From Escherichia phage myPSH2311: a stretch of DNA of 64,000 nucleotides. Shown piece by piece: positions 4,743-61,242 of this stretch; within the stretch, counting starts at the first letter, position 1; each line of letters starts with the position of its first letter. The DNA is taken from the sequence record MG976803.1. One strand, given 5' to 3'. The notes under the pieces are model-generated. The model did no database searches, was not told where the DNA came from, and worked only from the letters and a program-made list of their open reading frames with translations. The position numbers were made by a program, and so were the translations under genes.

Positions 4743-7733
4743 ATGATCGTTTATAACAACCAAGCACCTAAGAATGTTAACAATGTAGGACAATTTGGAG
4801 CTACTGAGGGAACTATTGGTGCTTATAAATCAGCAGCTGAATATGCAGCAGACTCTAAATATTGGGCATTGTTGTCCCAAACTAAATACTCCTCAGTAGA
4901 GGAGATTTTGGCTGAAGTAGAACGTCTGTATGCTCAAGGTCATCTACTGGAAGAAGACATTAAACAACTCAAGAGTGACTTTGAGTCACAAGAACAAGTG
5001 CTCTTAGGTTTGATTCAATCCACAGGAACTGCAATTGACAACACCAATGCAGCAACTGAGCTTTCAAAAGAGGCAACTCAAAACGTTCTAGCACAACTTG
5101 ACATTATCTCTAACATGACAGTTCAAACAACGCTTCTTCCTCCGGGAAGCCTAGCTACGGGGTCTTATGATAATGCAACAGGTGTCTTTGCTTTTGGTAT
5201 TCCAGAAGGTAAACCGGGGCGTGATGGTACTGACGGAACAATCGGTGATATTGGAAGCGTTCCTGTTGGTACCCCTGTTGTTGATGACTATGGTTTCTAT
5301 GTAGATAAAGATGATGGTGGTTTATACCGAGCTGACATGTCAGATATTGCCAACTTGATTCCATCTGTTCGATCTGTTTCAATCAATGGCGGCGCTGAAC
5401 AAACAGGTTCAGTGGTTTTTGATTCTGTCTCCACATTCAATGGACGTAAGGGTGCTGTAGTTCCTGCTACTGGAGACTACACAGCTGCTCAAGTGGGAGC
5501 TTTTAGTGTAACTAATAACCTATCCGAAATAACCGACACAAGTGCAGCTATTACAAATATTGGACTCGCTGAGCATGGGATTGGTAGCCCTACCTTAACC
5601 AAAGTGAAGGCTATGGACTGGCAAACATTTAATTTTGTCAATGGAGGTAACTATTCAGTATTAATGTCGAATATTACAAATGCCCCTGCTGAGATAAATT
5701 ATCCTGCCAATTATGGGTTATATCTTGAAGTCATTGGCGTAGTTACAGGAGGAGGTGAGGTACGAGTGGTGCCAATTGCATTGGGAATCCTCTCAATGGC
5801 ATATTTTCCGCTTGGCCAATGCGCTTATGCCGTGGCAAATGTGCCACAACTGCTGCATTGTGTGTAGCATCGCCAGCTTAGCGCTGCATCAATTGTACCT
5901 ATTACCAAAGGTGGTACAGGAGCTACTTCATCAGAGAATGCTCGACTAGCTCTAGTTGCAGCTAAGAGTGGTGATAACTCTGATATCACCTCGATGACCA
6001 ACAAGGTTACTTTCACACAATCTCCAGTAATTCCTGATGCTGTAGATGATAATGACGCGGTTGCTTTGAGACAGTTGCATACAAGTGAAGCAGATTTGCT
6101 GGCAAGGCTGAAAAGTAGTAATGCAGGTGAAGGTGCATCCCTTATTACCTTTGAAAATGGTAATTCTGTTGAGAGTCTTTCCAGTAAAGATGGGGCTAAA
6201 AACATTGGCAGTGGTGAGAGAAGTTTGCTTGTCCGTAACAACGACATTAAGCATTCAGGAGATTTCCCTACCTTACAAGCTGCGGTAAATGCATCGTTAC
6301 CAAAAAACGACTTAATTGTTTCCCCCGGTGAATACAGTGAAGCGATTACTATTGGTAGTACACAGTTAAAGGGTGTTGGTGGAGCCACGGTACTGAAAGC
6401 TCCGTCAAACTTTACAGACACTATTCAGGTTAAGGCATCTACGCCTCATTGGCAATTCCGCCATAGTGGTGGTTTTGCTATAGATGGTTCTGGGACAACC
6501 GGGGCTGTAGGTATTAGTTTTGACCCGACCGACCAATATGCTGGTCGTCACAACTTTAGTGACGTATACATCCATAACATTAACAAGGCCATTCAGAAAC
6601 CTTCCGGGAATATAGGTAATACATGGAAAGGCATTGGCGTGCAAGGTTGTGACTGGGGTTACTGGGCACAGTCTGCTTCTGAGATGCACTTAGGCTCTGA
6701 CACCCTTCAGAACATGCACTTTGATGGTATTAGCACTTACTGTGTTTACTTGAACGCTACAACAGGAGAAGCGCCTGGTACATTCGGAGGTGGTGTAGGC
6801 GGCTGGTGGATTAAAGATAGTATTATGGAAGCCTCTGGCGGTGGTGGTATTTACCTCAAGAACAAGGATGGTGACTGCCCTACTGCCCCATGTGGTGTAT
6901 CCAATGTATGGATGGAAGCTATCGCTACTACTCCAGCTATTAATGTAGATGGTGTATCTCAGAAGCCTCGTGTCCTTAAACTTATTGATACCAGTATCTT
7001 CTTTGCAGAGTACACATACCTTAATAACGTAGAGCTTCAGAACTCCAACCTTGTTACTTATGGCTGCCGAGTAGATAATTCAGATGGCCACATGGATATC
7101 TCTGTAGATGCCAACAGCAGTTTTGTGGCTGATCAATTGTACCTGAATGGTAGCTCCGGCAAAGATGTAATGGTACGTTCTGTAGCGGCTCAGACAGGCA
7201 AGATTGGGCAAAGCTGGTCACCTAATATGAGTATGCGTGGATACCTGCCGGAAGGATACATCTATCGTGTACCTGGTAATAAGCTGGTAGCTAAACCCTT
7301 CGATGGAGGTACTGCTGAATTTAGTGGTACGGCAAGCAGCACTGGGAGTTTGCAGCCACAAGGCCAGTTATCTCAGAGCTGCATGTACTTCGAAATCCCT
7401 GGTGCTGCTGAGTATGAGCTTACTGGTGCTGCATTTCAGATAACTTCCGGTAACTGGTATGTATGGGGCATTAGCACTGAACTGGTACAGGGAACCCCTA
7501 CAAACTTCCGCATCGGTGGAGATATCAATGTAGGTGAAGTATTTACTAAGGGGGGCCAGTGGGTGAGTACCTTTGGTGTAGCTCAGGCTAGTGCTTCCGG
7601 TTCAGTGAACCTGCGCCTAAGTACAGCCGGTACAGGCGGAGTAGTCCTACGCCTCGCTGATTACTTCGTAGCGGAGTTCACTACTCAGGCAGAGGCTATG
7701 CGCTTCGCTAATAGTAGACGTGCCCTGCGTTAA
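4743..7733 (+). CDS. Tail fibre/tailspike protein with in-frame TAG at 5865-5867; C-terminal part resembles a beta-helix depolymerase domain
   Basis: ORFs 4743-5867 and 5994-7733 share one frame; between TAG and first ATG there is no stop and no ATG/GTG/TTG, yet it encodes a tail-fibre-like PITKGGTGATSSENARLAL motif. Confidence 0.5.
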
Positions 7734-22260: not shown

Positions 22261-22427
22261 TTGCAAGCCTTTTAAGGCGCGCTGAAGCGGCTTTAAATGG
22301 CGCTAAATCGTGCAAAATGCCCATTGGGAGCCTGAATGGCGCGTGTTTTGCATAAGCCGGCGTTTGCCCAGTTCGTAAGGCTGGTATTTTGCTGTAAAGC
22401 GTGATTCATCGCCGCCTGATGCGTACT

Positions 22428-23535
22428 ATGGAAGATAAGGGCATATCTAGAGAGGATGCTGAAGCATTTGCTGGTTCCTATATGGATAACCGTTATGCAC
22501 TTCTTGAGAAGCCTATGACTCCTACTGAACATCAGAATGCTCGTTCTCGTATCGAAGCTGATGTTGAGAAGTTTGCTAAGAAGTACGAATCAATGACTCC
22601 TATCGAGAAAGAGATTGTTAAGGTTACTGGAGATACTGAAGGTAAGCTTGATAACTTGGATGCGGATACTAGGAAGGCTATTGAGGAGGCTCAGAAGGTT
22701 GACTCTGATATTAAGAAACTGCAAGAGGAAGAGTTGGAGATGGAGAAGATTCGTTCTGCTCTGCCTGATGATGAAAGATCTCAAGCAAATTCTGATATCT
22801 TGGAAAGCATTAAACAACAGGAAGAGGTCTTTGCTGATAAAGTAGAGAAAGCTTTCTTGAGTGGGAAGAGCTTGGATGAGTTGGCTAGTGTGGCTGAAGT
22901 TTTAGACAGGGTTCATGGTGCAGATAAGGCTGGTAACAACCGTCGCTTTGTACGTGCATTGCAGACTGCTGCTGAAAACAAGAAGAAGTATGGTGATAAT
23001 CCAGTAGCTTGGTTTAGTGCTGATGATTACTCTGCCATTGCTAAACTTGGTGCTTCTTCCGCAGGTGGTAACAAATCCAGAGCACTGGAGAAGATCTTTG
23101 GTTCTACAGCTGAACAGGCTAAGAGTAAGTTGCTTGGTAGGGATGATGTAGCGAAGATGAGACGTGTGATTGAAGAGAACCCTGATATCAAGATTCCTTC
23201 TTACAAGACAGGTCAGGTTTCCAGTCCCAGTCAATGGGCATGCATGGTCCAAAATCGGCCCCTAGGGTAACGTCGGAATCCGGTACGCTTATGCCCCTAA
23301 GTGCATTTTTTTGCTTGGTAGGGATGATGTAGCGAAGATGAGACGTGTGATTGAAGAGAACCCTGATATCAAGATTCCTTCTTACAAGACAACAAATCGT
23401 ACTGAGTACTTGCAGTTCTTGGAGAAGTTTAATGACGAAGGGAAGCCTAAGATTAAACGTGGCTCATTGTCAGAGAAGCTTGAACGCAGTAAGCGTCAAT
23501 CGAGACTCCGTGTAAGAGTTCGACCTAAGGAGTGA
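22428..23535 (+). CDS. Hypothetical late protein, reading frame broken by a 100-bp insert plus 81-bp duplication (23211-23391)
   Basis: ORF 22401-23270 ends inside the GC-rich insert; ORF 23311-23535 restarts with a duplicated LGRDDVAKMRRVIEENPDIKIPSYKT segment. Confidence 0.35.
23211..23310. other. GC-rich insert flanked by 81-bp perfect direct repeats (23130-23210 and 23311-23391)
   Basis: Direct comparison of the two repeat copies; insert has different composition from flanks. Confidence 0.6.
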
Positions 23536-23812
23536 TAAAAGAAAAGCCCAGGGCTCGTTCAAGTCAAATGATGGGCTAGTCAATTAAGCCCCTTGGGCAT
23601 AGCTGGCAATGCTAGTCACAACTTCTTCATTCATATACCCTCCTAGATTGTGTTTATAAAATTAGTAAGTTTCTCTTCACTTTCATCAAAAGCTTTTCCA
23701 GCTGCTTCCATCTCCCAAGTATCGGCATTGTCAATAAAGCTCTGAGCTTCTAATAGGTCGTGGATTAAGTCGAAGAGTTTATTTTTATCTGCTTGTGTGA
23801 TCATGTCAGTTC

Positions 23813-29825: not shown

Positions 29826-30607
29826 TGGCATAGCTGCAAAATGGGCCCGTTAATATGACCCGTTAAAGGCTTTTTTGGCATGCGTAAAAGGCTTGCTTAA
29901 ATTTCCTGCCTCATCACCCCGCCTGCATTTTGTTCCGTTGCGAATTCTCCAGAACACTTTCCCAGATGATAAATCACAAACAAAGAACTCATCCAGAAGA
30001 TCTTCTATCATATCATGCAACCATCGCAAGTTAAGTCACCTAGCAGGGACAGGGAAAGTAATCTGGATTGCTCATCGCTGTATAGTTGATCAATCTCTTC
30101 TTTAAGTTTTGCCAACTCCATAAAGTTAATGAGCTGACCATGTTCGAGGCAGTCTGTTTTTAGTACGAACAAAACTTCAGCGTTGGTTGAGTCTTCACTT
30201 GAGTATTTATCAATGTATTCCATTTTTATGCCACATCTCCTTGTTTGTTGTTAATAATATCCAGTGCTGTATAAGCTTTACCTGTTCCTAAGTATTCCAA
30301 AACTGGAGGACTCTTCTTTTCTTCAGCGACTACATAAGGTGTGATCTTCCCTTTCAGTACAGCCTGAGATGCTTTAGCACTGTCTTCAGAGGTATGAATA
30401 GTAGTAAGCCCTTTCTTTCCAATTCTATAAGTGTGAACCCAAATCATTCTTCTTCCTCATATTCCCAATTTCTTTCATAATATCCAGAGTTATAGTTTAG
30501 GGCGCACTTCTCGGCCTCTTCTATGTCGTCGGTGTTTAGGATATTCACCCACCCTCCAGCTTCATCAAAACCTTCTTCTTCCTCGTTAATCCATACACTA
30601 TATTTCT

Positions 30608-35144: not shown

Positions 35145-36128
35145 TTATGAGCTTAAAGCTCCTTTGCGTGCTCCAGCTGCTTTTCCAGCTCGATCACCAC
35201 TTTTGCCGCCGTTTGAACGGTTTGAGCTGACTGATTCAACACGTAAGTTGCTTGACGCATTAGAGCCTCCAGACTTGACAGCTCGTTTGTGTCCAACGTC
35301 TTTACCTCTGACAGCAGCTTTTCCATCGCGCTTTTCAACGATGCGACGTGCACGGTGGCGCTGAGCATCTCCGCTCTTGCTCCCAATTCCCGTTTCACCG
35401 CGCTTGATCGCAGTCCTTCTTTCTTGTGCATAATCTCTCTTTCCTACATGATCTGCCATTAGATTTCTCCTGTTGGGCAATGACGTTAAACGCCCGTTGT
35501 GGCCCAAAATTGGCGCCCAAAATTGGGGCTTAATGCGTGCGTAATTTTTGGGCCAAATTAAGGCCGTATATAATAACAGCTGAGAGGTTTCTCCCAATCG
35601 AGTCATGATTGAGAAGGCTTCATCTTTAGTGGTGTTCTGGAACTCATCAACAATAACAATAGCATCATTGAAAGAACGACCACGGAGATATTCCAGAGGT
35701 ACAAACTCAATGTTACCATTTCCGATTTGGCATTCATAGAATCCCTTACCATATCGCTGAGTAATAACATCAATGATAGGCATCAGGTAAGGTTCAAACT
35801 TCTCACGCATTCCTCCCGGAAGTAACCCAAGAGAGTTGCCCATGCCGACAGAAGGGCGACTCAGAATGATCTTCTGAATCTTACCGCTCTTCAGTGCATC
35901 AATAACTGTGGAAGTGATTACAAAGGTCTTACCACAGCCCGCAGGAGCGTCTGTGAACACAACTTGTTTAGTCTTAATAGCATTGAGTAGCTCAGACTGA
36001 AACTGGTTCTGAGGGACTACAGGCTTTGCTAAAACCACCTCTTCATACTCTCGCTTACCTTTACGAGTAACAAGTGCTTCCCGACGAAGGTCTTTCCGTG
36101 ATTCTTTCCGTGATTGACGACGACTCAT
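35145..36128 (-). CDS. phoH: PhoH-like ATPase, reading frame runs through a GC-rich insert after the DEFQN motif
   Basis: Walker A APAGCGKT; DEFQNTT...TRLG; downstream translation (LLLYTALIWPKNYARIKPQFW...) is insert-encoded. Confidence 0.5.
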   Translation of the reverse strand: MSRRQSRKESRKDLRREALVTRKGKREYEEVVLAKPVVPQNQFQSELLNAIKTKQVVFTDAPAGCGKTFVITSTVIDALKSGKIQKIILSRPSVGMGNSLGLLPGGMREKFEPYLMPIIDVITQRYGKGFYECQIGNGNIEFVPLEYLRGRSFNDAIVIVDEFQNTTKDEAFSIMTRLGETSQLLLYTALIWPKNYARIKPQFWAPILGHNGRLTSLPNRRNLMADHVGKRDYAQERRTAIKRGETGIGSKSGDAQRHRARRIVEKRDGKAAVRGKDVGHKRAVKSGGSNASSNLRVESVSSNRSNGGKSGDRAGKAAGARKGALSS

Positions 36129-37038: not shown

Positions 37039-37383
37039 TTAACTCTCCAAAGTTTTCTTCAGAGCTGCCCATGAGATTGGGTAGAGCTTAGCCATCTCTT
37101 CATCTACGGATTTAGCAAACACTCGAACTTCATATTGAGCGTGAGATGAGAGTCGCTGACGACACAACTCAAACCAGCCATACAAAGAACCAGTCCACAC
37201 CCACTCAGTGATCATCCCCTGAGGAAGAACAAATCGAGCTTGCTCTGGTGCAATAAATTCAATCAACTTGTCATATGTTGCTAGAGAAGCTTCATATGCA
37301 TCGTTAATCAACATTAATGCTTCAGCTCGTTCTCCGTCGATGAGTTGAATCCCTGAACCTGCATGGTTTGCCCAAAATGGCAT
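37039..37383 (-). CDS. thyX: ThyX, C-terminal half
   Basis: PEQARFVLPQGMITEWVWTGSLYGWFELCRQRLSSHAQYEVR matches ThyX C-terminal helical region. Confidence 0.55.
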   Translation of the reverse strand: MPFWANHAGSGIQLIDGERAEALMLINDAYEASLATYDKLIEFIAPEQARFVLPQGMITEWVWTGSLYGWFELCRQRLSSHAQYEVRVFAKSVDEEMAKLYPISWAALKKTLES

Positions 37384-37451
37384 TGGCGCTATAGCATGGG
37401 GCTTTTTAAATGGCCCCGCGGGTTAATGCTAATGGCGGATTTTGGCCACGG
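37384..37451. other. GC-rich insert splitting thyX into two ORFs in different frames
   Basis: 68 bp between the two ThyX ORFs; composition unlike flanking coding sequence. Confidence 0.55.
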
Positions 37452-37757
37452 TTATGCATGCGTAGGGAGTTCAACTGCTCCATCTTTATACCGCCGGGAC
37501 ATTTCGTTCCACGAGAATCCAACCTGATGCTTGCCCAGCTGTCTCGCAATTGCGATAGGTGCTTTGCATCGGAAACTGACTTGCGGGTGTCGGAATGGAG
37601 TACAGTGTTTTTCCCGTGCAAGGAAGTTGATAAGTTTTGTGTCTCTCTCATTTAAGTCACCTTCTCGAACAACACCGAAAGATACTCTAGCTGCATTGAC
37701 TACAGATTTGTCACTACCCATTGCTTCAATCAGTGTTGCTTGTAGTTGTTCGTTCAA
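37452..37757 (-). CDS. thyX: Flavin-dependent thymidylate synthase ThyX, N-terminal half (gene split)
   Basis: AARVSF...TPFRHPQVSFRCKAPIAIARQ...S(11)...SRRY ThyX-like pattern; ends shortly after SRRY. Confidence 0.55.
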   Translation of the reverse strand: MNEQLQATLIEAMGSDKSVVNAARVSFGVVREGDLNERDTKLINFLAREKHCTPFRHPQVSFRCKAPIAIARQLGKHQVGFSWNEMSRRYKDGAVELPTHA

Positions 37758-38710: not shown

Positions 38711-39322
38711 TTAGTAAGACACGTCACCACTTGAATGGGACATGTTGCTCTTGACGAAGTAGCAATACTTGCCAAGACCTTCATTAATTTCTTGAAGCAT
38801 ACTCTGATCGACAGGGTAGGATGCTAAATCGCCATCAAACTCATCCATCTTCTCAATAATACACATCAAGGTCATGCACATATCAGAGAGCATACCGTCC
38901 ATGTCTAGATCAGCATTACCCTCTGAGAACCAGGCATGGGAGAGGTAGTTAGCCGCTGTAGCATCCACCTTAACGCAGTGGTATCGCATACGCTCAGCAA
39001 TACGATCTCCTACCTGTCGTGCGTAATCTTCCAGCTCGTCAAACATACCATGAACACCCTGAAATCCTGCACCAGAGACATTCCAGTGGTAGTTTTTAGC
39101 TTTGATATGCAAGAGTTCCATGTTAGCTTGTAAGCAGCTCAGGATGTGTTCTAGGCTGTTTGCACTAATCATGCCTTGCATTGTTTCAAGGCGAGAGATT
39201 GAAAGCTCAGACCGGTCTAACATACTATAACTGTCACGACCAATCTCAGGTAAATCAAAAACATTCTTATGCATTTGGGTTTTCTCCATCAAGTTCAACT
39301 GAGTTAGCAACATTACGTGCAA
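38711..39322 (-). CDS. Dps/ferritin-like protein
   Basis: KNYHWNVSGAGFQGVHGMFDELEDYARQVGDRIAERMR resembles Dps ferroxidase-region pattern; assignment from memory. Confidence 0.45.
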   Translation of the reverse strand: MHVMLLTQLNLMEKTQMHKNVFDLPEIGRDSYSMLDRSELSISRLETMQGMISANSLEHILSCLQANMELLHIKAKNYHWNVSGAGFQGVHGMFDELEDYARQVGDRIAERMRYHCVKVDATAANYLSHAWFSEGNADLDMDGMLSDMCMTLMCIIEKMDEFDGDLASYPVDQSMLQEINEGLGKYCYFVKSNMSHSSGDVSY

Positions 39323-40135
39323 TATTATCCATTACCTGCTGGGTAATTACGATGCAGTTTAGGCATGGTAATGCGTTTAGGCGTCTTGGGGAGGTGCCCC
39401 CAGTTGCAAGCTGATGCTGCGGGTAAATTGGCGCCATGGGAAACGCGTTAATGCGTGCCTGATGTTATCTTTTCTCATGTGTTGCTCAAGATCCCAAACA
39501 ACATGAATAGCCCACATCTTTTTCATTAGTAATGTACCTTTCCGCTGATATAAACACGACCAGAAGAATACTCCTTGGCCTTATGGATGCTGATACTATT
39601 AACCACGTCACCAGTAAGCATAGTCTTTTTAAAATCTCGAGCTTGTTGACGAGTAGGGAGTGCAGTCATAGTCATACCACCTGATGCCCACTTAATCTTC
39701 GCTAACCAGAATTTTCTCATAGTGATTGGTCTCATTAGTAATAAACCTTACTGTTGACACAAAAAGCACCTTCACTATTCACGATAGCTTTTCCTAATGT
39801 AACCTTGTTAAGTCTAAAAGTAGACTTGTATTGGTTTTTGACCCTACGTGCGTGCTCTCGAGTATTAACAAAATCTACAGCTACTAACTCTCCAGTCGTG
39901 TTATCATGTACACGAACAATCCACTTTTTCATTTTACTAAACCCTTCATGTAGTCATAAAGATCATTAGAAGCTTTACCCCATTCAAGGTGCTTCTTATC
40001 CATATAACGCTTACAGACTTCTTTATTACCTTCATCACAAGTATCAAATCGATGACATGCCCGACCAAATACCATTGCTTTTAACTGAGCATCAGTAGTT
40101 AAATATTTAAGTTCTTGAAACTCTTCTTTATTCAT

Positions 40136-40669
40136 TTACACACCCTTAGATGCAACTACACCTTCAGAGTTATTATAACGACCCTTCACTGCATAGGAGT
40201 GTTCCCCTGCATGAGAGTGCTCAAACATGACCATCTGACCAACACGCATACCAGCACGAACTCGTAAGCTATGATGCTTGGTTACGTTATGGAATTCAAA
40301 TGTCAGCTTACTACTATTAAATCCTGCATCTGCCCAACCGGCGTGAAGGTGGTTCAAACCACAACGAGCCATAGACGAACGCAGAACAAACAGACTTGAG
40401 ATGTTATCTGGAAGATTAAACTCCTCCATAGAGTGAGCCAAGAAGAACTGACCCGGAGTGATAACCAAACCCTCTTCAGGAATCTTTACTTCCTTCCACT
40501 GAAGATTCTCTTTCGCATCAATATCAACGATGCCATCAGCCTGTTCTTCAACAAGGATAGTATCGCCAATACGAATATCCACACTAGCAGCGTTAACATA
40601 CTTATGCTCCGCATCCAGATAGCCATTGTCAATTACATCATGCAGTTCAACACTTCCTAGTAAACTCAT
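40136..40669 (-). CDS. dcd: dCTP deaminase/dUTPase-family protein
   Basis: 177 aa; beta-rich dUTPase-like sequence; RBS AAGGAG before ATG. Confidence 0.5.
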   Translation of the reverse strand: MSLLGSVELHDVIDNGYLDAEHKYVNAASVDIRIGDTILVEEQADGIVDIDAKENLQWKEVKIPEEGLVITPGQFFLAHSMEEFNLPDNISSLFVLRSSMARCGLNHLHAGWADAGFNSSKLTFEFHNVTKHHSLRVRAGMRVGQMVMFEHSHAGEHSYAVKGRYNNSEGVVASKGV

Positions 40670-40696
40670 TCTTGCTCCTTAGTTATTTGTTTCCAT

Positions 40697-40861
40697 TTAA
40701 GCGTGCATATTTTGGCTAATTTTTGGCGTAAAAGTTTTCGCCCAGTGCCTGATTGAACCGGGTCGTAATTATTGCCCGGGTAGTGTTTAAAATGGCGAGG
40801 AATTAACAGCTGAGTGTGGTGCATCAATAACACCATCATCAATTAATTTATGTAACTCTGG
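40697..40861. other. Insert upstream of dcd carrying a diverged duplicate of the dcd start region
   Basis: 45-bp near-identical repeat (40652-40696 vs 40862-40906, 2 mismatches) including RBS and ATG; copy at 40818-40908 encodes MSLLGSPELHKLIDDGVIDAPHSAVN vs MSLLGSVELHDVIDNGYLDAEHKYVN. Confidence 0.55.
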
Positions 40862-40888
40862 ACTTCCTAGTAAACTCATTCTTATTCC

Positions 40889-41266
40889 TTAGTTATTTGT
40901 TTCCATGTCAAAAGAGATTCCACGACCCGCTTCATCGGCAAACCGAACTGTACGGGTTTGAGGTTCTAATACTTCAGGGTTGTTAGCAATAAAGCGATCA
41001 GCGAGACTATCTCCCAAATCTTGTTCCATACCTTCATCAGTCCAGATAACACGAGAAGGGGCGTTGATATCACCAACAGCGAAACCCTGACCAGAGAACT
41101 GACGTGCGCTAACAGTTAAGCCGTTTGGTCGACCACGAGAGGGTCTAGCCATCCATCGCTCCATAGAATCACTTGTAATACCAAGAGCTTCTTCAAAAGA
41201 TGTTCTACGAGTAGGGCTTTCTCTTCGTGACTCTTGTGCTCGACGCATTGCAGGGGCTACAAACAC
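40889..41266 (-). CDS. Probable C-terminal part of the same nucleotidyltransferase, separated by a GC-rich insert
   Basis: Adjacent same-strand ORF after insert 41245-41375; combined length ~430 aa fits family. Confidence 0.35.
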   Translation of the reverse strand: MFVAPAMRRAQESRRESPTRRTSFEEALGITSDSMERWMARPSRGRPNGLTVSARQFSGQGFAVGDINAPSRVIWTDEGMEQDLGDSLADRFIANNPEVLEPQTRTVRFADEAGRGISFDMETNN

Positions 41267-41322
41267 CCCTTCAATTGCAAATTGGCGCCCAATTTGGCAA
41301 TGATTTGCCCCGTTTGTTAAGC

Positions 41323-42183
41323 CTATGCAAATGTGCGCTTTGGCGATTGGGCCAAATTGGCCTGAAGACTAGACATAATCTGAATCTCTTCATAAGGGAT
41401 TCCAAAGAATCGACTCATGTCTCGGTTAACACAATATAGAGCACTTGTTGTATCTTCAATAAGAGAAACCTGACCTAATCCATTGACTAGATGACTAACT
41501 GGCTGAGGTGTGGGAAGATATCGAGTTTGGGCCATGTATTGATGCGCAACTGCTGGAGAGGAAAATCTCAACACTTGTGAGTTAGGCCACTTCTTGTGAA
41601 CATACCTGATTTCACGACTAGAGACAACCACTGGACAAGGGGAAGTCATAGCCAAATATCCGTGAGAAGTCATGAATAAGTTGTCAAGAGTCATCGCACC
41701 ACGGCACATCATAGGAAAATTATCCAATACCTCTTCAATAGAAGTAGGATAATTAAACATGAATTGGATACGAACCCCATTCCACTGAAACTCAATAATA
41801 TCAGTGAATGTTAATTGAGAACCCCCAGCATAGGATTCGTTTGTAGCTTCAGCAAGAAGTGATGCATATTCAATATCTTGTGACTCTAGCCATTCCTTCA
41901 CATTACTTTCAATCTCCCGTCCAAGCTCTTGCCAACGATCAGTTGGGATGAAAGTGTTTTGAGTTCTTGGTGTTTGTCCTCTGACAATAAAGATATCAAT
42001 GTCATGTGGAGCTATGTTATTAAGGACAGCATCACGAACAGCCCCACCAGTAATGATGGGACAGATACCATCTGGAATCAAGTTGTTGTTAATCAACTGT
42101 TCAATGAAGTGACGACCAACAGTGATATCAGGTTGTTGAGCAACCTTATCTTCAATTTGGTTAATCGGGATAACAATCATTTT
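41323..42183 (-). CDS. Pol-beta superfamily nucleotidyltransferase (CCA-adding/poly(A)-polymerase-like), N-terminal part
   Basis: GICPIITGGAVRDAVLNNIAPHDIDIF matches GG.VRD...D.D NTase signature; C-terminal 16 residues are insert-encoded. Confidence 0.5.
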   Translation of the reverse strand, partial: KMIVIPINQIEDKVAQQPDITVGRHFIEQLINNNLIPDGICPIITGGAVRDAVLNNIAPHDIDIFIVRGQTPRTQNTFIPTDRWQELGREIESNVKEWLESQDIEYASLLAEATNESYAGGSQLTFTDIIEFQWNGVRIQFMFNYPTSIEEVLDNFPMMCRGAMTLDNLFMTSHGYLAMTSPCPVVVSSREIRYVHKKWPNSQVLRFSSPAVAHQYMAQTRYLPTPQPVSHLVNGLGQVSLIEDTTSALYCVNRDMSRFFGIPYEEIQIMSSLQANLAQSPKRTFA

Positions 42184-44073: not shown

Positions 44074-44240
44074 ACCAAAATTGCGTGACGTTGGCTAATT
44101 GCTGACGTGGAATGGCCCTGGCAATTGGGATGCCCCGTGTTAGCTGCGATTTGGCGCGTTATTGGCCCCGTGTTTGCAAGTAATGCGCGGGCTTTATGCC
44201 GTTAATGCTGGGTTTATGCGTGCATATTGCTGTGCCAATG
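44074..44240. other. GC-rich insert between primase zinc-ribbon and Toprim coding regions
   Basis: Zinc-ribbon ORF runs into this segment and stops; Toprim ORF begins just after it; composition unlike flanks. Confidence 0.55.
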
Positions 44241-44412
44241 CGTAATGGGTAGTGCCCTTTTCGAACACTTCGTAATTCCCACAACGGTTACAACTCCCCC
44301 ACTCCTCACCAGTCTCTTCGTTACGGAAGAGAATCATGTGGTTGTGGGTTTTATCACGACCATGAGAGATACATTCCTTACAACCTGTGTCTCCCAAAAT
44401 GATCTTTGACAT
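44194..44412 (-). CDS. Primase zinc-binding domain (N-terminal fragment of primase)
   Basis: CKEC...CNRC Cys4 zinc-ribbon; last ~17 residues are insert-encoded. Confidence 0.5.
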   Translation of the reverse strand: MSKIILGDTGCKECISHGRDKTHNHMILFRNEETGEEWGSCNRCGNYEVFEKGTTHYALAQQYARINPALTA

Positions 44413-44590: not shown

Positions 44591-45214
44591 TTAAATACTT
44601 GGCTTCAAGTCTCCGAAGAGCCATGTGGCAATTTTATCTTGTTCTTCGTCGATATGATAAATCCAAGCGATAACAGTTTCACCTGAGTCCATCTTAACAG
44701 CAATCTGAGTACGCTGATAGAAGCTGTCTTCAGGGCTACGTTTGTTGTAACCTTCCAGACGGTCATACGGACCTTCCAGACCTGCTTTGTCAGTAGCAAA
44801 CACTTCTACACGAACAGGCTTGTTGTTATTGCTGTGTGCGAGAGAGATGCTCGGGAAGTAGGAACCACCGTAACGGAACAGATCAAAGTTGTCTAATGGG
44901 CCGTTTTATGCGGTTTAAAGGCCTTGACCAGTGCATTTGCCCGTTAAATGGCGTGGGGATTTCCCAGTGCGGGTGGCCAGTAAACGTGTTTTGTCTTTGT
45001 CAGTAGCAAACACTTCTACACGAACAGGCTTGTTGTTATTGCTGTGTGCGAGAGAGATGCTCGGGAAGTAGGAACCACCGTAACGGAACAGATCAAAGTT
45101 GTCTTCAGTCCAACCTTCACCAATTGACTTAGCACCAGCTCGGTCATTAACTAAATAGTTAGCTTGACCACGACGAAGAGAACCATAAGTTGCTACGTAA
45201 ATTACTTCTGACAT
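44591..45214 (-). CDS. Gamma-glutamyl cyclotransferase (AIG2/GGCT)-like protein, interrupted by 100-bp insert with 110-bp flanking direct repeats
   Basis: N-terminus MSEVIYVATYGSLRRGQAN resembles YGSL...G GGCT signature; ORFs 44915-45214 and 44591-44803 join if 44895-45104 is removed. Confidence 0.45.
44895..44994. other. GC-rich insert flanked by 110-bp perfect direct repeats (44785-44894 and 44995-45104)
   Basis: Exact repeat verified by reading both copies. Confidence 0.6.
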
Positions 45215-45425: not shown

Positions 45426-45478
45426 AAAACCTCCAGCTTATCCGAACTAGCCTCCTCTTTCGAAGAGGCTAAAGCAGA

Positions 45479-46880
45479 TTACTCTGTAATAAAGATTTTG
45501 ATTACACCACAGATTGCTGCACTCTCAAATACTGCAACAGCTTCACTCCCCTGAAAGAAGGCCACTTTGCCGTCAGAGAAGTTAAACATGTCAGCATCTA
45601 GGTCCATAGCTCGCATATCACCAGCGTCGTTAGTATCTTTAAACAGAACTTTATACTTATTCACAGATAGGTCACTCCTTTGTCTTGTTGTGCTTCAGAG
45701 ATGATACGTTCTACACATTCCATAGAATACTTATCACCACGTTTCAGGAAAGTCACAATTGCAGAGAATTGATTACCAATCATTCGCTGATTAGTAATAC
45801 CCCACTCCTCACACAACTTACGCAACTCTTTACGAGAGCCTACAATCAGAGGCTCTTTTTGTTCCATCATTCCATTTTGTACTAGATCTTCCAATGAAAA
45901 CATATCCATATATCCTTAGTAGTTTACAACAGTGCCATCGTTCAGGGTAAGGCTATTAATCTGCAACACACGACCAAGCTGACGATCACTAATTGGTGCG
46001 TTCCATCCAGAGCGGTAGAAGTTACGACCACAGAAGAACAAGATCACATTACTTGCTACAGTCGAACCGTTTTCAGGATGCTTGATGTTAGCGATATAAT
46101 AACCACGACGCAGATTACGACGGGTTACAGGGTTGATCTCTAACCCTTGCTCTTCAACTTGCATTGTTTCAGGAACAGGTTCCGAAGATTCTTCAGCAAC
46201 TGGCTCGGAGCTTTCCACTGACAGTGCGTAATCCTCATCACCTGCTGGTGAAAATGTTTCTTCCACTTCTTCAACAGGAAGTTCGTATGCAACACGATAG
46301 TCAGGCTCAACACCAGAGAAGCTCTTAACAAACTCAACAATATTGTGAGTATAGGTTTCCAGAGTTGTTCCAGTCAGTCCCGGAGCTGTGTTAACTTCCA
46401 GAACCCAAGCGTTAGTATTTTTACTAATCAGGTCAACAGCACCAAAGTTCAAACCCAGAGCAGATACAGCTTTGTGAGCTTGAATCAAAACCTGATCAGG
46501 AGGCGCATCTTGGAAGTTTGAGGAATAAACCCAACCAGTGTGATGATTTCGAACGTCTTCACGATAGGAAGGATCTTCACGGTAACCATTACGACGAATC
46601 TTCTTCTGAACGTAAGTGATAACACCTTCGAATACATGAACACGCCATTCACGATTGGTGAACGATAAGGGAAAGGTCCTTGGCCATAGCGTGGCGTATG
46701 CATGCATGCATGCATAAATTGCGTGTTTTGGGCGCGGTGAACGACTGTTAAAGTGTTAGCTTGACCACGACGAAGAGAACCATAAGTTGCTACGTAAATT
46801 ACTTCTGACATTATCTATACCTTTGTTGGTTTGTTTAGTTTATCCGAACTAGCCTCCTCTTTCGAAGAGGCTAAAGCAGA
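45479..46880 (-). repeat. Tandem repeat unit 3: truncated ATP-grasp copy (45916-46707), 82-aa ORF (45661-45909), 61-aa ORF (45479-45664), plus GC-rich junction and GGCT-start fragment
   Basis: Near-identical to units at 46881-48246 and 48247-49904; truncated copy begins exactly at codons REWRVHV. Confidence 0.7.
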
Positions 46881-48246
46881 TTACTCTGTAATAAAGATTT
46901 TGATTACACCACAGATTGCTGCACTTTCAAATACTGCAACAGCTTCACTTCCCTGAAAGAAGGCCACTTTGCCATCAGAGAAGTTAAACATGTCAGCATC
47001 TAGGTCCATAGCTCGCATATCACCAGCATCATTAGTATCTTTAAACAGAACTTTATACTTATTCACAGATAGGTCACTCCTTTGTCTTGTTGTGCTTCAG
47101 TGATGATACGTTCTACACATTCCATAGAATACTTATCACCACGTTTCAGGAAAGTTACAATTGCAGAGAATTGATTACCAATCATTCGCTGATTAGTAAT
47201 ACCCCACTCCTCACACAACTTACGCAACTCTTTACGAGAGCCTACAATCAGAGGCTCTTTTTGTTCCATCATTCCATTTTGTACTAGATCTTCCAATGAA
47301 AACATATCCATATATCCTTAGTAGTTTACAACAGTGCCATCATTCAGGGTAAGACTGTTAATCTGCAACACACGACCAAGCTGGCGATCACCAATCGGTG
47401 CATTCCACCCAGAGCGGTAGAAGTTACGACCACAGAAGAACAAGATCACATTACTTGCTACAGTTGAACCATTCTCAGGGTGCTTGATATTAGCGATGTA
47501 ATAACCACGACGTAAAGTACGACGGGTTACAGGGTTGATCTCTAACCCTTGTTCTTCCACTTGCATTGTTTCAGGAACAGGCTCCGAAGACTCTTCAACA
47601 ACTGGTTCAGCTGTCAATGCAAAGTTCTCGTCATCTGCTGATTCAGCAAACTCTTCCACTTCTTCAACAGGCAGTTCGTAAGCAACGCGGTAGTCAGGAT
47701 CAACACCAGAGAAACTCTTAACAAACTCAACGATGTTGTGAGTGTAAGTTTCCAGAGTTGTTCCAGTCAGGCCCGGAGCTGTATTAACTTCCAGAACCCA
47801 AGCGTTAGTACCTTTGCTAATCAGGTCAACAGCACCGAAGTTCAAACCCAGAGCAGATACAGCTTTGTGGGCTTGAATCAGAACCTGATCAGGCGGCGCA
47901 TCTTGGAAGTTTGAGGAATAAACCCAACCAGTATGATGGTTTCGAACGTCTTCACGATAGGAAGGATCTTCACGATAACCATTACGGCGAATCTTTTTCT
48001 GAACATAGGTGATAACACCTTCAAACACATGAACACGCCATTCACGAGGTGTAAGCTGCGAATGCGGTTAAATTGCAATGCGTGCCCAAGTGTTTTTGCT
48101 AAGGTGGGTAACATTTACGCGGTCCATTAGTCGTCGTGCAGTTGCGTATAAGTTGCTACGTAAATTACTTCTGACATTATCTATACCTTTGTTGGTTTGT
48201 TTAGTTTATCCGAACTAGCCTCATCTTTCGAAGAGGCTAAAGCAGA
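46881..48246 (-). repeat. Tandem repeat unit 2: truncated ATP-grasp copy (47318-48028), 82-aa ORF (47063-47311), 61-aa ORF (46881-47066), plus GC-rich junction
   Basis: Protein copies differ at a few residues from unit 1; same breakpoint as unit 3. Confidence 0.7.
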
Positions 48247-48432
48247 TTACTCTGTAATAAAGATTTTGATTACACCGCAGATTGCTGCACTTTCAAACAC
48301 TGCAACAGCTTCACTTCCTTGAAAGAAGGCCACTTTGCCATCAGAGAAGTTAAACATGTCAGCATCGAGGTCCATTGCTCGCATCTCACCAGCTGCATTG
48401 GTATCTTTAAACAGAACTTTATACTTATTCAC
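48247..48432 (-). CDS. Small protein (61 aa), first of three copies
   Basis: 61 aa; copies at 46881-47066 and 45479-45664 are identical in protein sequence, the unit-1 copy differs at two residues; followed by conserved hairpin. Confidence 0.35.
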   Translation of the reverse strand: MNKYKVLFKDTNAAGEMRAMDLDADMFNFSDGKVAFFQGSEAVAVFESAAICGVIKIFITE

Positions 48433-48677
48433 AGATATGTTACTCCCTTGTCTTGTTGTGCTTCAGTGATGATACGCTCTACACATTCCATAGAGTACTT
48501 ATCACCACGTTTTAGGAAAGTTACAATTGCAGAGAATTGATTACCAATCATTCGCTGATTAGTAATACCCAACTCCTCACACAATTTACGCAACTCTTTA
48601 CGAGAGCCTACAATAAGAGGCTCTTTTTGTTCCATCATTCCATTTTGTACTAGATCTTCCAATGAAAACATATCCAT
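48429..48677 (-). CDS. Small protein (82 aa), first of three copies
   Basis: Conserved in all three repeat units. Confidence 0.35.
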   Translation of the reverse strand: MDMFSLEDLVQNGMMEQKEPLIVGSRKELRKLCEELGITNQRMIGNQFSAIVTFLKRGDKYSMECVERIITEAQQDKGVTYL

Positions 48678-48683
48678 ATATCC

Positions 48684-49904
48684 TTAGTAGTTTACAACAG
48701 TGCCATCATTCAGGGTAAGGTTATTAATCTGCAACACACGACCAAGCTGACGATCACTAATTGGTGCGTTCCATCCAGAGCGGTAGAAGTTACGACCACA
48801 GAAGAACAAGATCACATTACTTGCTACAGTTGAACCATTTTCAGGATGCTTGATGTTAGCGATATAATAACCACGACGCAGATTACGACGGGTTACAGGG
48901 TTGATCTCTAACCCTTGCTCTTCAACCTGCATTATTTCAGGGACAGGCTCCGAAGACTCTTCAACAACTGGCTCGGAGCTTTCCGCTGATAGTGCGTAAT
49001 CCTCATCACCTGCTGGTGAAAATGTTTCTTCCACTTCTTCCACGGGAAGTTCGTATGCAACACGGTAGTCAGGCTCAACACCAGAGAAGCTCTTAACAAA
49101 CTCAACGATGTTGTGAGTGTAGGTTTCCAGAGTTGTGCCAGTCAGGCCCGGAGCTGTATTAACTTCCAGAACCCAAGCGTTAGTACCTTTGCTAATCAGG
49201 TCAACAGCACCGAAGTTCAAACCCAGAGCAGATACAGCTTTGTGAGCTTGAATCAGAACTTGATCAGGAGGCGCTTCAGTGAAGGAGTTAGAATAAACCC
49301 AACCAGTATGATGGTTACGAATATCTTCACGATAGCTTTCCAGTTCACGATAACCATTACGACGAATCTTCTTCTGAACGTAAGTGATAACACCTTCGAA
49401 CACATGAACACGCCATTCACGACGTGGGCCTTGGATGCCTTTGGTGTACAGAGGAGCATCCGCAACACCTTCTCGCGGAAGACGAACAGTGATCCCCTCA
49501 CCAGAGTGACCAGTCAAGGTTGCACGTTCATAAACAATTTCATTCCGGTTCCAGTTCTGAGCTACTTCACGATCTACGGTGTATTCAACAGTTTTGACTT
49601 CAGCTAAACGCAGTGCGTTAAATGCTGCAACTTTGTTAGCGGCTCGGTTCAAGGCAACCACAGAGTTCAATACAGTTGCACCGCCAAAGAAAGAATCATT
49701 ATATCGACGGTTTCCATAGTTGACAACAATATCACCAACTCGAGAACGATAACGAGAACCCTCTGATACCAGAGACATTACGTTAGCATTTAAGCGAAGT
49801 TCCTGAATCTTAGTTAACGGGTTACATGATGCGTTTAAGCCTGTTACCGTGGCGTTAAATCGGGTTAAGTCAGTCGTAGTGCGTAGTGACTTGTGTGATG
49901 GCAT
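48684..49904 (-). CDS. ATP-grasp family ligase (full-length copy)
   Basis: 406 aa; C-terminal half contains GAVDLISKGTNAWVLEVNTAPGLTG (ATP-grasp EVN..PG signature). Confidence 0.5.
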   Translation of the reverse strand: MPSHKSLRTTTDLTRFNATVTGLNASCNPLTKIQELRLNANVMSLVSEGSRYRSRVGDIVVNYGNRRYNDSFFGGATVLNSVVALNRAANKVAAFNALRLAEVKTVEYTVDREVAQNWNRNEIVYERATLTGHSGEGITVRLPREGVADAPLYTKGIQGPRREWRVHVFEGVITYVQKKIRRNGYRELESYREDIRNHHTGWVYSNSFTEAPPDQVLIQAHKAVSALGLNFGAVDLISKGTNAWVLEVNTAPGLTGTTLETYTHNIVEFVKSFSGVEPDYRVAYELPVEEVEETFSPAGDEDYALSAESSEPVVEESSEPVPEIMQVEEQGLEINPVTRRNLRRGYYIANIKHPENGSTVASNVILFFCGRNFYRSGWNAPISDRQLGRVLQINNLTLNDGTVVNY

Positions 49905-50353
49905 AGGTAACCTACGCCTATATGTACGTGACCACAGTCAGTACGAAGTCCCTTGTTCTGAGAAGTGGGGGACGGATTTTTCTGACCAGTGAAAGCGTTG
50001 AAGTCAGGAGTACATCCAAAGATGAACGCTGATTCATTAAAGGTCTTCATTTCTTCTTCGGTGAAGATGTGAGAGCTAACACCCGGAGCTGTTTCCATGT
50101 CCAGTTTGTTCAGGACATTATTGGTAAGATCGATACCACGTTGCATGTTATCGTTAAACGCTTCAAAACCGCTCTGTGGGTCGATATCAAACTCAGCCAG
50201 TACGTTGTCCTCTTGAAGACGAACATCTTTAGCCAGAGTGATCTTATCGTCCTTAGAACAGCCTAATAGACCAGCTACAGAGGTGATGATACCATTACTG
50301 GTACGAACGAACATTTCAGGGTCAGAGCCGATAAGGAATTTGCGCTTAGTCAT
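49865..50353 (-). CDS. Hypothetical protein (possible ligase-associated)
   Basis: 162-aa ORF overlapping neighbours; no confident motif. Confidence 0.3.
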   Translation of the reverse strand: MTKRKFLIGSDPEMFVRTSNGIITSVAGLLGCSKDDKITLAKDVRLQEDNVLAEFDIDPQSGFEAFNDNMQRGIDLTNNVLNKLDMETAPGVSSHIFTEEEMKTFNESAFIFGCTPDFNAFTGQKNPSPTSQNKGLRTDCGHVHIGVGYLCHHTSHYALRLT

Positions 50354-51327: not shown

Positions 51328-52527
51328 TTATTTTCCTAAAAATAATCCGCTCATAACACCATCCCACTCAGAGGATGGAATCACTGAATACTCCGAACTT
51401 TGGTCCAGAGTCCCACTACTAAATCGCTGAATAATGTTGTAGATGTTGAACAGGTCTTTAGCCTCGGCACGAATGCCGTAGATTAACCTGTTAGCTGTTC
51501 TCTCATTTTTAGACACGCGACGGGTAAAGTTAATCAGAAGGTTGTCACATTTCAGGATTTCCGATTCACTCTCTACTAAGTCGGGGTGCATCACCGGCAA
51601 GAACATCGAGTTATTAACTCGTAATTCTGCTGTTTCATCATTCTCATAATGAATCCACTTAAAATCTTCATCACGGAAATGACCGCATCCATCCCTATAC
51701 GACTGTTGACGCCAAGGCACTTGAAATGCTTCAGCATATTTATCAGCCATACCAACTGTAAACAGTGACGCTGGGAAGATACAAGCATCCCAATCATTAC
51801 CGACCAGAGTTGCTTTCGTTTCGCCCAAGAGGTTGGTGTAGGTGCTAACCATTCGTGAGTAAACGTAAGCCTGAAGGATTGTCCAGCCTTCAACCAACCA
51901 TTTATGAAGGAAGGTTTCCACTTGGCTCTCTTCATCTTCAAAATAGAAGGTTCGATCTAACATCAAATAGAACAGACAACGATCAGCAGGAACATTCTCA
52001 GTTGCTACACCCATAAAACCTTTTTCGTGCCAGCGTAAACAGGAGGGACGATCTTTGTCCACAAATGCTTCCATAGCTTCCAGTACAGCACGAGGTGTGG
52101 TTCGGTGTTCAGGGTTTTTGTCGTTCCAACGTTCGATGTTATTTTTAGGAGGTGTGTCTTCATCTTCATATGAACACCAACTTAAAGCTTCAGCTACGTG
52201 CTTTTCATCACGCCAGCGTCTGAAACCTAACATCTTCATGTGAGTTCCGGAGTTCCAGATATGCTTGATTTTACACATATCCATTTCTCGGCTTAGCCGG
52301 AACTCTTCTCCATCAGCACTACGAACGTTAGCTTCTTCATGCCACACTCGAACGTGCATATTCCACCCATGAGTTGCCTCATAAGTGTTAGGTTCAAAAT
52401 ATTCATCATACTCTTCATCGTCTTCATCAACGCCACCGTTATAGTTGCGAAGCTGAAGGAACCCATAACAAGGGGGGTTGACCGTTAAAACATTACCTTC
52501 AGTATCTTCTAATGTTACTGGAAACAT
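51328..52527 (-). CDS. Hypothetical protein
   Basis: 399-aa ORF, acidic N-terminal region. Confidence 0.3.
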   Translation of the reverse strand: MFPVTLEDTEGNVLTVNPPCYGFLQLRNYNGGVDEDDEEYDEYFEPNTYEATHGWNMHVRVWHEEANVRSADGEEFRLSREMDMCKIKHIWNSGTHMKMLGFRRWRDEKHVAEALSWCSYEDEDTPPKNNIERWNDKNPEHRTTPRAVLEAMEAFVDKDRPSCLRWHEKGFMGVATENVPADRCLFYLMLDRTFYFEDEESQVETFLHKWLVEGWTILQAYVYSRMVSTYTNLLGETKATLVGNDWDACIFPASLFTVGMADKYAEAFQVPWRQQSYRDGCGHFRDEDFKWIHYENDETAELRVNNSMFLPVMHPDLVESESEILKCDNLLINFTRRVSKNERTANRLIYGIRAEAKDLFNIYNIIQRFSSGTLDQSSEYSVIPSSEWDGVMSGLFLGK

Positions 52528-55338: not shown

Positions 55339-56600
55339 ACATCCTCCAATTAATTGTTAAAACTATCAGGGGAGAACACTAGCTCTGGGCCACGCTGTAG
55401 ATATCGGCCTACCTTCCACAGCTAATCAGCTAATATACTCCCCTAATAGTTTATGAATAGGGGGAGGGGACGAATCCTCCCTTATCCTATTAGTTAATAT
55501 TGCATGTAAGATCTAACAATCGGTTGCCTTTGTAGGAATAAGCGTAAAGCCAATCCAGCACTAAACTCCCGCCCCCTTAGTGGGCTGGGTTATTAAAGGG
55601 TAACGCCCTTATGGGCTAGTTACATGAATGTTAGTTTGATAGGAGATCTGAAGTCCTATCTCAAAGGACTCTCGTAAGAATCCTTCACGATATTACTTAT
55701 TCATCTCTCGTCGGCTATCTCTCCAAGCCAACCAAGTGTAGGTTTTCAGTTCTTCAAAGTCTTCTGGAGAGAATAGATACTCTTTGAAGGTGTTCCCAAA
55801 CCACTCTAAAAATTCTTCAGTCATGAGTCCTCATACAGTGATCTGAGTCGTTTGAACGAGCTGAGTTTCAGGAGCTTCTGAGTCATGCCAGGATGTCGTA
55901 GTCGTGATGTTTTTAGTGAGGACCAATTCAGAACTTACGAGCACCACAGCAAGGAGAGTTGACATAAGAGTAACCAGCTTGTGTATTCTTGATTGTTTGC
56001 TTAGACATTTGAGCTTCCTCTTGTTAGTTTAGGTAAACCACCCCAATCACTGCTGCACTCATTCATGTGGAATGCAGATGGGAAAAGTAATTAAAGGTGA
56101 TTTACCTAAAACAACAAAGGCCACCCGAAGCCAGCTAAGCTACTGACATTGCATGAATCCAAAAGCCTTCCAGTTTCAGAGCACCATTAGCTACTGCATC
56201 CATACGTTCAGGGCGGTTCATACGTTTGGTTGATACTTTCATACCTATCTCTCTTTGTTAGTGGAGGCATTATTGCCAGTTGATATAAGGGATAGCCCTA
56301 GTCAGTAGACTAATCCTGACCGCGTACTCATTGCCGACCTTCTCTGCCTAAGAGTTCAGGTTCTAGAGCTATCTCTTATTCCAACTGGTGAAGACTCCCT
56401 ACCCCTAGGAAGTCTCCTGAATCCCAAACTAATACGTACCCCTACATATCAGAAAGTCTTTCGAAAATTAACAGGTTTTAGTCTAGCACCGGATGTTCGA
56501 GCAAGCTCTCCCTAGCGGTGTGGCATATGCCTGAATTAATAAGTTAATGAGGAACACCCTCACATAGCCCTCTGATAAACACAAGGGCTATAAGTCGATG

Positions 56601-59268: not shown

Positions 59269-59385
59269 AATCTTATTCCTTTCAGTGATAAGTTATATCG
59301 GGCAAGCCCATCAAGGCGATAGGCTTGAACAAATAACTTAATCAAGTAAACTAAACGATTTCCAACTCTTTTTTACGGTGCCCGA

Positions 59386-59688
59386 TTATCTACGTTGCGA
59401 TCTTTTGCTGATGGCAGTCTTTAAGTCGCTAGTCGGTAGTCGGGTATCTTTACTGTCTTTAGTCGTAGTCGTAAATGCGTACTTTGTCAAAAGTCGTGCA
59501 TGTGATTGAGCAAATGACGCTTTAACAGCCATTTTCCTAACTTCTTCTTTACGCTGGTTAGTGTGTACAGTATCCCAATGATTGTTATCACGTTGGCGCT
59601 GTAATATCTTACTACATTTGCGATGGTTTCCCGTGCTGCGATGTTTCTCGCAAATAGGACACTTGCCAAAATTATTACTGAATATCAT
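59386..59688 (-). CDS. Cys/His-containing small protein (possible zinc-binding)
   Basis: CPIC...H...C spacing in first 30 residues. Confidence 0.3.
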   Translation of the reverse strand: MIFSNNFGKCPICEKHRSTGNHRKCSKILQRQRDNNHWDTVHTNQRKEEVRKMAVKASFAQSHARLLTKYAFTTTTKDSKDTRLPTSDLKTAISKRSQRR

Positions 59689-60014: not shown

Positions 60015-61242
60015 TTATGCCGCTTGACGTGCCGCCATAATCTCAGCCGCTTTGCGCAGTACTTCTTCCTCTTCTGCTTTCGCCGCTTGTTCACTACGGA
60101 TTGCAACCGTTGAAGAGATACGACCGCGCAGGTTATCTAATTTTTCCTGCATTTTGGCAATGGTGGATTCCATTTCATCAGCGTATGAATCGAGTGATTC
60201 TAATTCCTTGCTTGATGCGTTCATCAGATAATCATCCGAGATCGCTACCGTTGAGGCCGTGACTTTCTTGATGAGTGAATCAAAGGACTTTTTAACCTTC
60301 CCAACTTCTTCACTCAGGGCGATAGTGTTATCGCTAGTTGCGCCGTTGCGCTCATCAGCCAGTAATTTGGCTTCAATACGGATTGCATTCAAACGTTCGA
60401 CTAAAGCGTAAATATCTTGGTTAAAATCTTCCTTGTTTTTCGCCGGTATTTGCAGGTGTGCCACTACGTTGTCATTGCAACCCTTGTAAAAGTTAGGATT
60501 ATCGACTTCAATTTCACGACCTAGTGCAAAATTTTCGAAAGCATTTGACCAGCGAGCGCGGTTTAGTACCATTTTGGATTTAATTTGCGCTACTTTCGCA
60601 TCTTCTTTAGCTTTCGCCTCACCTTCCAGAATAAACCACTATTTACGAACATATGCGTCCCGTGTACCCGTCGTTTACTTGACTGGCTTTGTCATGCGTA
60701 TTTTGTCGTACGTGACTGTTTTCGTACGTTGCGTGCATGCGTTTTGTCAAAATGTTTTTCGCCGGTATTTGCAGGTGTGCCACTACGTTGTCATTGCAAC
60801 CCTTGTAAAAGTTAGGATTATCGACTTCAATTTCACGACCTAGTGCAAAATTTTCGAAAGCATTTGACCAGCGAGCGCGGTTTTGTTCCATTTTGGTTTT
60901 AATTTGCGCTTCTTTCGCATCTTCTTTAGCTTTCGCCTCACCTTCCAGATTAATCCACTTTTTACGACCATTTGCCGCATCGGTGTTAAACTTGATAGGA
61001 GTTAAGAAAGTAATTGCGGTAGCGATAACATCCATATCACGGAAACGTTCAGTTAACAGGAAGTCAACCGCCGCCTGCAATACATCTAACTTCTTACCGT
61101 TGCTACGAAAGTGCTGCAAATGCCCTAACAGGAAGTTAGAAACATCTTGTTTGATCGCCGCGTTATTACTGCGAATGTTGTTAGCCAGAGCATTAAAACC
61201 GGATTCGTTAACCAGAGTAAAGATTTTAGCCATAATATTCAC
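60015..61242 (-). CDS. Hypothetical protein, interrupted by 102-bp insert and 217-bp duplicated segment
   Basis: ORFs 60643-61242 and 60015-60572 share a duplicated RARWSNAFENFALGREIEVDNPNFYKGCNDNVVAHLQIPAKN segment. Confidence 0.4.
60651..60752. other. Insert flanked by 217-bp direct repeats (60434-60650 and 60753-60969) that differ at 8 positions
   Basis: Base-by-base comparison of the two copies. Confidence 0.6.

Follow-up and report, generated by a model that had tools for sequence, protein, structure and literature searches.

ABACAS separates overlapping contigs by 100 Ns. The joints of pseudomolecules built with it or with CONTIGuator resemble the locus described here in several respects: the placeholders have a fixed length, overlapping contig ends stand unmerged on both sides of a gap, allelic or redundant contigs follow one another in tandem, and genes are broken at the joints. 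They differ from it in that Ns stand there and letters here, and in that a minority of the blocks found here are not of about 100 nt. CONTIGuator, like ABACAS, puts Ns into the gaps between contigs (PMC3133546).

Two natural systems also bear a likeness to the locus. Around free-standing homing endonuclease genes of phages (intronless homing and marker exclusion, as with SegF/SegG and MobE of T4), a diverged allele is tied to an adjacent endonuclease gene, as it is for dcd in Kuraviruses. At the locus studied here, however, there is no endonuclease gene, and its arrangement corresponds to no known homing product and occurs in no clean genome. Gene-fragment remnants left in phage mosaics by illegitimate recombination show, as here, a truncated allele upstream of an intact copy, with a short repeat at the border. 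What defines these remnants is a junction that has been sequenced, whereas here filler replaces the junction and the stop codon is not native.

The window, by which we mean the whole stretch of 64,000 nucleotides that was analysed, is that of a phiEco32-like (Kuravirus) phage of E. coli, and the genes of the region discussed below lie on its minus strand. Upstream of the intact dCTP deaminase gene (dcd) stands a decoy, a second and truncated start of dcd. Taken at face value, it would speak for gene replacement, or for a pseudo-start with a regulatory role, in an operon of phage nucleotide metabolism. We find it probable, with good confidence, that the decoy start is instead a scaffold-joint artefact of a patchwork assembly and no feature of a real phage genome.

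The duplicated NTase-dcd junction

The junction between the nucleotidyltransferase (NTase) gene and dcd occurs twice, as a direct repeat whose copies (40652-40696 and 40862-40906) are identical at 43 of 45 positions and lie 210 nt apart; the similarity reaches 86 nt at 79% identity. Its core, the 21-mer ATGGAAACAAATAACTAAGGA, is found exactly twice in the window, with zero occurrences expected (100 shuffles). The first-pass annotation had described a 45-bp repeat, containing a ribosome-binding site (RBS) and an ATG, that occurs twice, and it is indeed present, with a core above chance. Either copy comprises the last five NTase codons and their stop (METNN*), a 9-nt spacer, and the ATG with five codons of dcd. 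The 9-nt spacer, which carries the Shine-Dalgarno sequence, reads GGAATAAGA in the upstream copy and GGAGCAAGA in the downstream one.

In the downstream copy (40652-40696, minus strand), the shared 21-mer is followed by GGAGCAAGA, a private GC variant. The intact dCTP deaminase gene (40136-40669, minus strand) encodes 177 amino acids, is of phiEco32/TH38 type and is recognised by the Pfam DCD profile with an E-value of 3.5e-34. The upstream copy (40862-40906, minus strand) is a native ES17-type junction, identical to that of ES17 and of most Kuraviruses. With its RBS and ATG intact, it opens an ORF of 30 codons, MSLLGSPELHKLIDDGVIDAPHSAVNSSPF (40787-40879, minus strand), in which 22 more codons homologous to the real Dcd (codons 7-28; 40797-40861, minus strand) come after the repeat.

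Formal protein alignment of the decoy ORF with the N-terminus of the real Dcd gives 17 identities out of 28 (E 1e-10), bearing out the earlier view that the fragment is homologous to that N-terminus and not random sequence. The same description had it run for 28 codons and then stop, which stands in part. The homology to dcd does extend to codon 28, where it ends at base 40797, but the last two codons of the decoy ORF and its stop are inside a foreign block of 100 nt (40697-40796), and dcd of ES17 continues past this point, reading NSSSIDVRIGD. Since the stop codon is encoded by filler, termination is no property of the dcd fragment.

This block is non-native filler, putatively the placeholder of a scaffold gap. 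It measures exactly 100 nt, its edges being the ends of matches at 100% identity to different records, and its composition scores z = -2.9 when a Markov model is trained on ES17. Compared with phage databases, the segment 40697-40861, in which a dcd homologue had been supposed, divides in two: 40797-40861 matches dcd exactly and 40697-40796 matches nothing. The spacer has no match in phage genomes (blastn, distant mode), in complete E. coli genomes or in IMG/VR (exact 40-mers), and its comparison with the dcd loci of relatives by tblastx returned nothing. The 3' end of the ES17-type dcd and its HNH gene were considered as its source and discarded, as they show no similarity to it.

An intact RBS, an ATG and an open frame of 30 codons are also what a functional upstream ORF would present, that is, a decoy start producing a leader peptide that tunes dcd translation by ribosome loading or by coupling after the NTase stop. 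Such a function is extremely improbable: both the stop of the ORF and the entire spacer are filler, and the arrangement is conserved in no relative. Nor did we detect an RNA element, a terminator or a promoter in the spacer, which has no Rfam match, a fold z-score of +1.1 and no sigma-70-like site.

Two dcd alleles and their carriers

The 65 nt at 40797-40861 are identical at 100% to the functional dcd of ES17, EcoN5, 1-6af and FH3. As this sequence is that of a natural, functional dcd, the fragment is a genuine second allele, and the first-pass annotation was right in assigning it to a second, different one. Together with the upstream repeat copy (40797-40906) it matches the native NTase-dcd junction of ES17 at 100%, and with the 3' part of the NTase gene it makes up 483 nt (40797-41279, minus strand) at 100% identity to ES17, an identity that is directly observed. 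These 483 nt form the end of what we call piece A, and the dcd fragment is the last 65 nt of it.

The allele to which the fragment belongs is the long, HNH-linked one, called dcd' below. The ES17-type Dcd and that of the window share 59% amino acid identity, and the divergence between the alleles begins straight after codon 6, which makes the NTase-dcd junction a natural mosaic boundary. The ES17-type gene has 555 bp and its 3' end is overlapped by an HNH_3 ORF of 510 bp (PF13392, E 3.7e-8) in five genomes out of five (ES17 locus: L006 2483-3530). Carriers of the 534-bp allele have no HNH ORF downstream. This linkage resembles that of a homing endonuclease which stands free beside a putatively resistant allele inherited along with it. 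The real biology at this locus is thus modest and of a known kind: Kuraviruses have two dcd alleles, one of which is strictly tied to a downstream HNH gene. At this locus of the window we found neither an endonuclease nor a co-conversion tract, and the body of dcd' with the HNH gene (ES17 46305-47540) has no match anywhere in the window.

A Dcd identical to that of the window occurs in 10 independent contigs from isolates, metagenomes and SRA assemblies. In all ten, dcd comes 9 nt after the NTase gene and there is no decoy; the same spacing, likewise with no decoy, is seen in the five ES17-type genomes. Among 96 phage records the decoy arrangement is absent save in myPSH1131 (MG983840.1), and exact-pattern scans of IMG/VR and of metagenome contigs for the stub or its junctions gave zero matches.

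The intact dcd of the window is part of piece B, a stretch of 1237 nt (39460-40696, minus strand) with filler on both sides, whose first 45 nt are the downstream repeat copy. Piece B is identical at 100.000% to positions 46116-47352 of myPSH1131, compared with 92-98% for other Kuraviruses. It begins at the same base in both records and carries in both a private, stronger variant of the Shine-Dalgarno sequence (GGAG). Among 66 phage records, the GGAGCAAGA spacer was not found behind an intact NTase gene, so that the presumed second strain is represented by no independent record; this counts against reading the decoy as an artefact.

We considered myPSH1131 as an independent confirmation of the decoy and rejected it, given the identical piece of 1237 nt, the duplicated gene sets and many blocks of about 100 nt that it contains itself, and its construction with CONTIGuator. 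Its decoy spacer also measures 100 nt and is a noisy copy of a small gene about 1 kb away; its blocks of about 100 nt imitate native sequence at roughly 70% identity and with many indels. The record has a second NTase copy, in which 51859-52341 is identical at 100% to 40797-41279 of the window, as well as repeated sets of exonuclease, ATP-binding and ATP-grasp genes, and it lacks large regions, for instance that of ES17 at 6.3-8.1 kb. This public 'complete genome' is a pseudomolecule. It was obtained from CLC de novo scaffolds ordered against a reference with CONTIGuator2 (PMC6200275), and the sibling phage myPSH2311 was assembled in the same way, with CLC and CONTIGuator2 (PMC6437105). As they share identical contigs and the same pipeline, the two records with a decoy, that of the window and that of myPSH1131, are not independent.

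It is conceivable that the locus is a genuine recombination scar. Illegitimate or homeologous recombination with a relative free of the endonuclease would have cost an ES17-like phage the body of its dcd and the HNH gene, leaving a 5' stub of dcd upstream of the imported NTase 3' end, RBS and short dcd; the assembler would then have broken at the resulting repeat, hence the gap at this place. The stub is a true natural allele, and its constant linkage to an HNH gene (5/5 genomes) is typical of loci where double-strand-break repair makes mosaics. Moreover, the remaining part of the ES17-type dcd and the HNH gene are missing from myPSH1131 as well as from the window, the two records agree in the first base of piece B and in its stronger Shine-Dalgarno variant, and an exact repeat of 21-22 nt would break a short-k assembly precisely here. 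We nevertheless regard the scar as unlikely. Its distal junction is 100 nt of filler, with no continuous native sequence across it; the only two records that show this junction have identical contigs and one pipeline in common; and neither IMG/VR nor metagenome contigs contain anything of the kind. Many other essential regions are missing from both assemblies too, and the absence of the dcd' body therefore carries little weight. The proposal that the fragment is the remnant of a gene replacement is not upheld: the join is hidden by filler, it is one of about 20 such joints, and no clean independent Kuravirus has the arrangement.

It is also quite doubtful that there exists a Kuravirus lineage (myPSH1131/myPSH2311-like) in which a dead 5' stub upstream of an imported, endonuclease-free dcd would be the fossil of the loss or expulsion of the HNH gene by illegitimate recombination. 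The imported dcd would in that case come with a duplicated junction of its own, and its Shine-Dalgarno sequence would have been strengthened.

Filler blocks across the window

Compared over its full length with ES17, TH38 and myPSH1131, the window contains about 20 blocks, mostly of about 100 nt, that are non-homologous and of aberrant composition. They are placed at 2656-2754, 5775-5883, 22264-22403, 23211-23310 and 23550-23617; at about 29830-29930 and at 35473-35574, 37367-37466, 39360-39459 and 40697-40796; at 41280-41362, 44080-44245, 44895-44994, 46655-46748 and 48052-48147; and at 49815-49911, 55837-55936, 59368-59502 and 60657-60752. Their lengths, which are read directly, fall between 94 and 109 nt for 13 of the 20, and six blocks, the decoy spacer included, have exactly 100 nt. 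A minority departs from this length, with 28, 68, 83 and 135-166 nt, which counts against an artefact.

The blocks have no homologues in ES17, TH38, SU10 or myPSH1131. Their texture is odd, as in ATGCATGCATGCATGC, GGCCCAAAATTGGCGCCCAAAATTGGGG and ATGCATGCATGC, and their GC content is 0.43-0.57 versus 0.425 for the window. All of them are outliers under the ES17-trained Markov model, their z-scores lying between -2.0 and -4.5. The window contains no Ns: where a scaffold joint would be recognised by a run of Ns as its placeholder, the blocks are made of letters, and this, too, counts against an artefact.

The sequence between the blocks agrees at 99-100% identity with segments of ES17, of myPSH1131 or of both. 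The distance on the reference across the blocks is erratic, ranging from -1308 to +4717 nt; it is -110 nt at the decoy joint and likewise at the block 44895-44994. Masking of a contiguous genome by stretches of the same length is ruled out by this variation.

Long stretches at 100% identity to two GenBank records from different continents might also point to a window that is computationally composed or corrupted, with real segments of ES17 and myPSH1131 stitched together by generated filler. The texture of the filler, which looks typed or generated, would agree with this, as would one block that stands in for the inner part of a stretch which is otherwise contiguous and identical to ES17. We think such an origin very unlikely, as the record of myPSH1131 has the same architecture in two collections, and this architecture is to be expected from the CONTIGuator pipeline as documented.

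The recurrence of the pattern seen at dcd is equally direct. Flanks are duplicated at five other joints, tandem allelic copies included. Three other blocks are abutted by duplications, two of them perfect (81 nt and 110 nt) and one of 223 nt at 96% identity. The perfect duplications of 81 nt (23130-23391) and 110 nt (44785-45104) directly abut 100-nt filler on both sides, and we read them as unmerged overlapping contig ends. One perfect flank duplication sits inside a virion gene of 4.4 kb. At a further two blocks, the filler stands between tandem allelic copies of 1.2-1.3 kb: the region of ES17 at 52.1-53.4 kb, in the area of the ATP-grasp gene, is present three times in tandem at 45435-49814, with identities to ES17 of 93.6%, 91.8% and 99.8%. 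Three diverged alleles in tandem indicate that several strains were co-assembled, in a mixed or unresolved assembly. The recombination scar considered above is further weakened by this recurrence, as the same flank duplication stands at joints inside structural genes, where such a history is implausible.

Gene disruption is directly visible too, as stop codons within the blocks hit the genes of the major capsid protein, the tail fibre and the NTase. With these genes broken, no viable genome can have the sequence as it is written.

A probable assembly origin of the decoy start

We infer that the blocks take the place of scaffold gaps and that the window comes from an assembly of the CONTIGuator type, possibly that of myPSH2311 (MG976803). 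The window would then be a reference-ordered pseudomolecule, in which separately assembled contigs, some of them from different co-assembled strains, would have been strung together, with a placeholder of about 100 nt wherever Ns normally stand. At the decoy, the filler 40697-40796 would part the ES17-identical piece A from the myPSH1131-identical piece B. Piece A runs through the NTase gene and then 83 nt into the ES17-type dcd. Piece B begins inside the 3' end of the NTase gene, exactly 21 nt before its first strain-specific base, and carries the phiEco32-type dcd; a start at 21 nt ahead of a strain-specific base is presumably how a branch contig begins in a short-k assembly graph.

On the reference, both piece ends extend over the same 110 nt, and they would have been left unmerged. 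Because the pieces carry different alleles, their overlap would read as a 45-bp repeat with a 'diverged N-terminus'. Its first 45 nt, near-identical in the two alleles, would be seen as the direct repeat, and the next 65 nt, which are allelic and about 60% identical at the protein level, as the diverged decoy N-terminus. The stop codon would have been supplied by the filler, by chance.

Two observations sit less easily with a scaffold joint at this place. A contig with the dcd' body and the HNH gene is missing from the window and from myPSH1131 alike, which counts against an artefact. In addition, ES17-type pieces in three placements all end 79-118 nt into dcd', and a real junction there would also explain this threefold stop.

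Altogether, the evidence indicates that the window and the public record of myPSH1131 are patchwork pseudomolecules. Any finding that adjoins the coordinates of the filler blocks is suspect, and duplications, split genes and 'remnants' beside blocks of about 100 nt warrant no biological reading.

The NTase gene itself is a case in point. Relatives have it as one ORF of 437-457 aa, and in the window (40889-42183, minus strand) it appears as two, of 304 and 125 aa. It is split because the filler 41280-41362 stands where ES17 has 108 nt of its own. In two public assemblies (L009 and L015), too, the gene is given as two ORFs, of 305 and 118 aa and of 323 and 104 aa, respectively.

At the other end of piece B, the filler 39360-39459, of 100 nt, takes the place of 452 nt of relatives. 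Two truncated ORFs (39267-39526, minus strand) run into it: one is the 49-aa start of a small gene beginning MKKMWAIHVVWDLEQH, the other the 56-aa tail of a 109-aa gene. Together with the filler, both ORFs stand where relatives have these 452 nt. Downstream of dcd lies an array of paralogous genes of 65-70 aa (39526-39932, minus strand), whose copy number differs among Kuraviruses. A gene of 68 aa with a Phage_T4_Y13I domain occurs in some Kuraviruses only.
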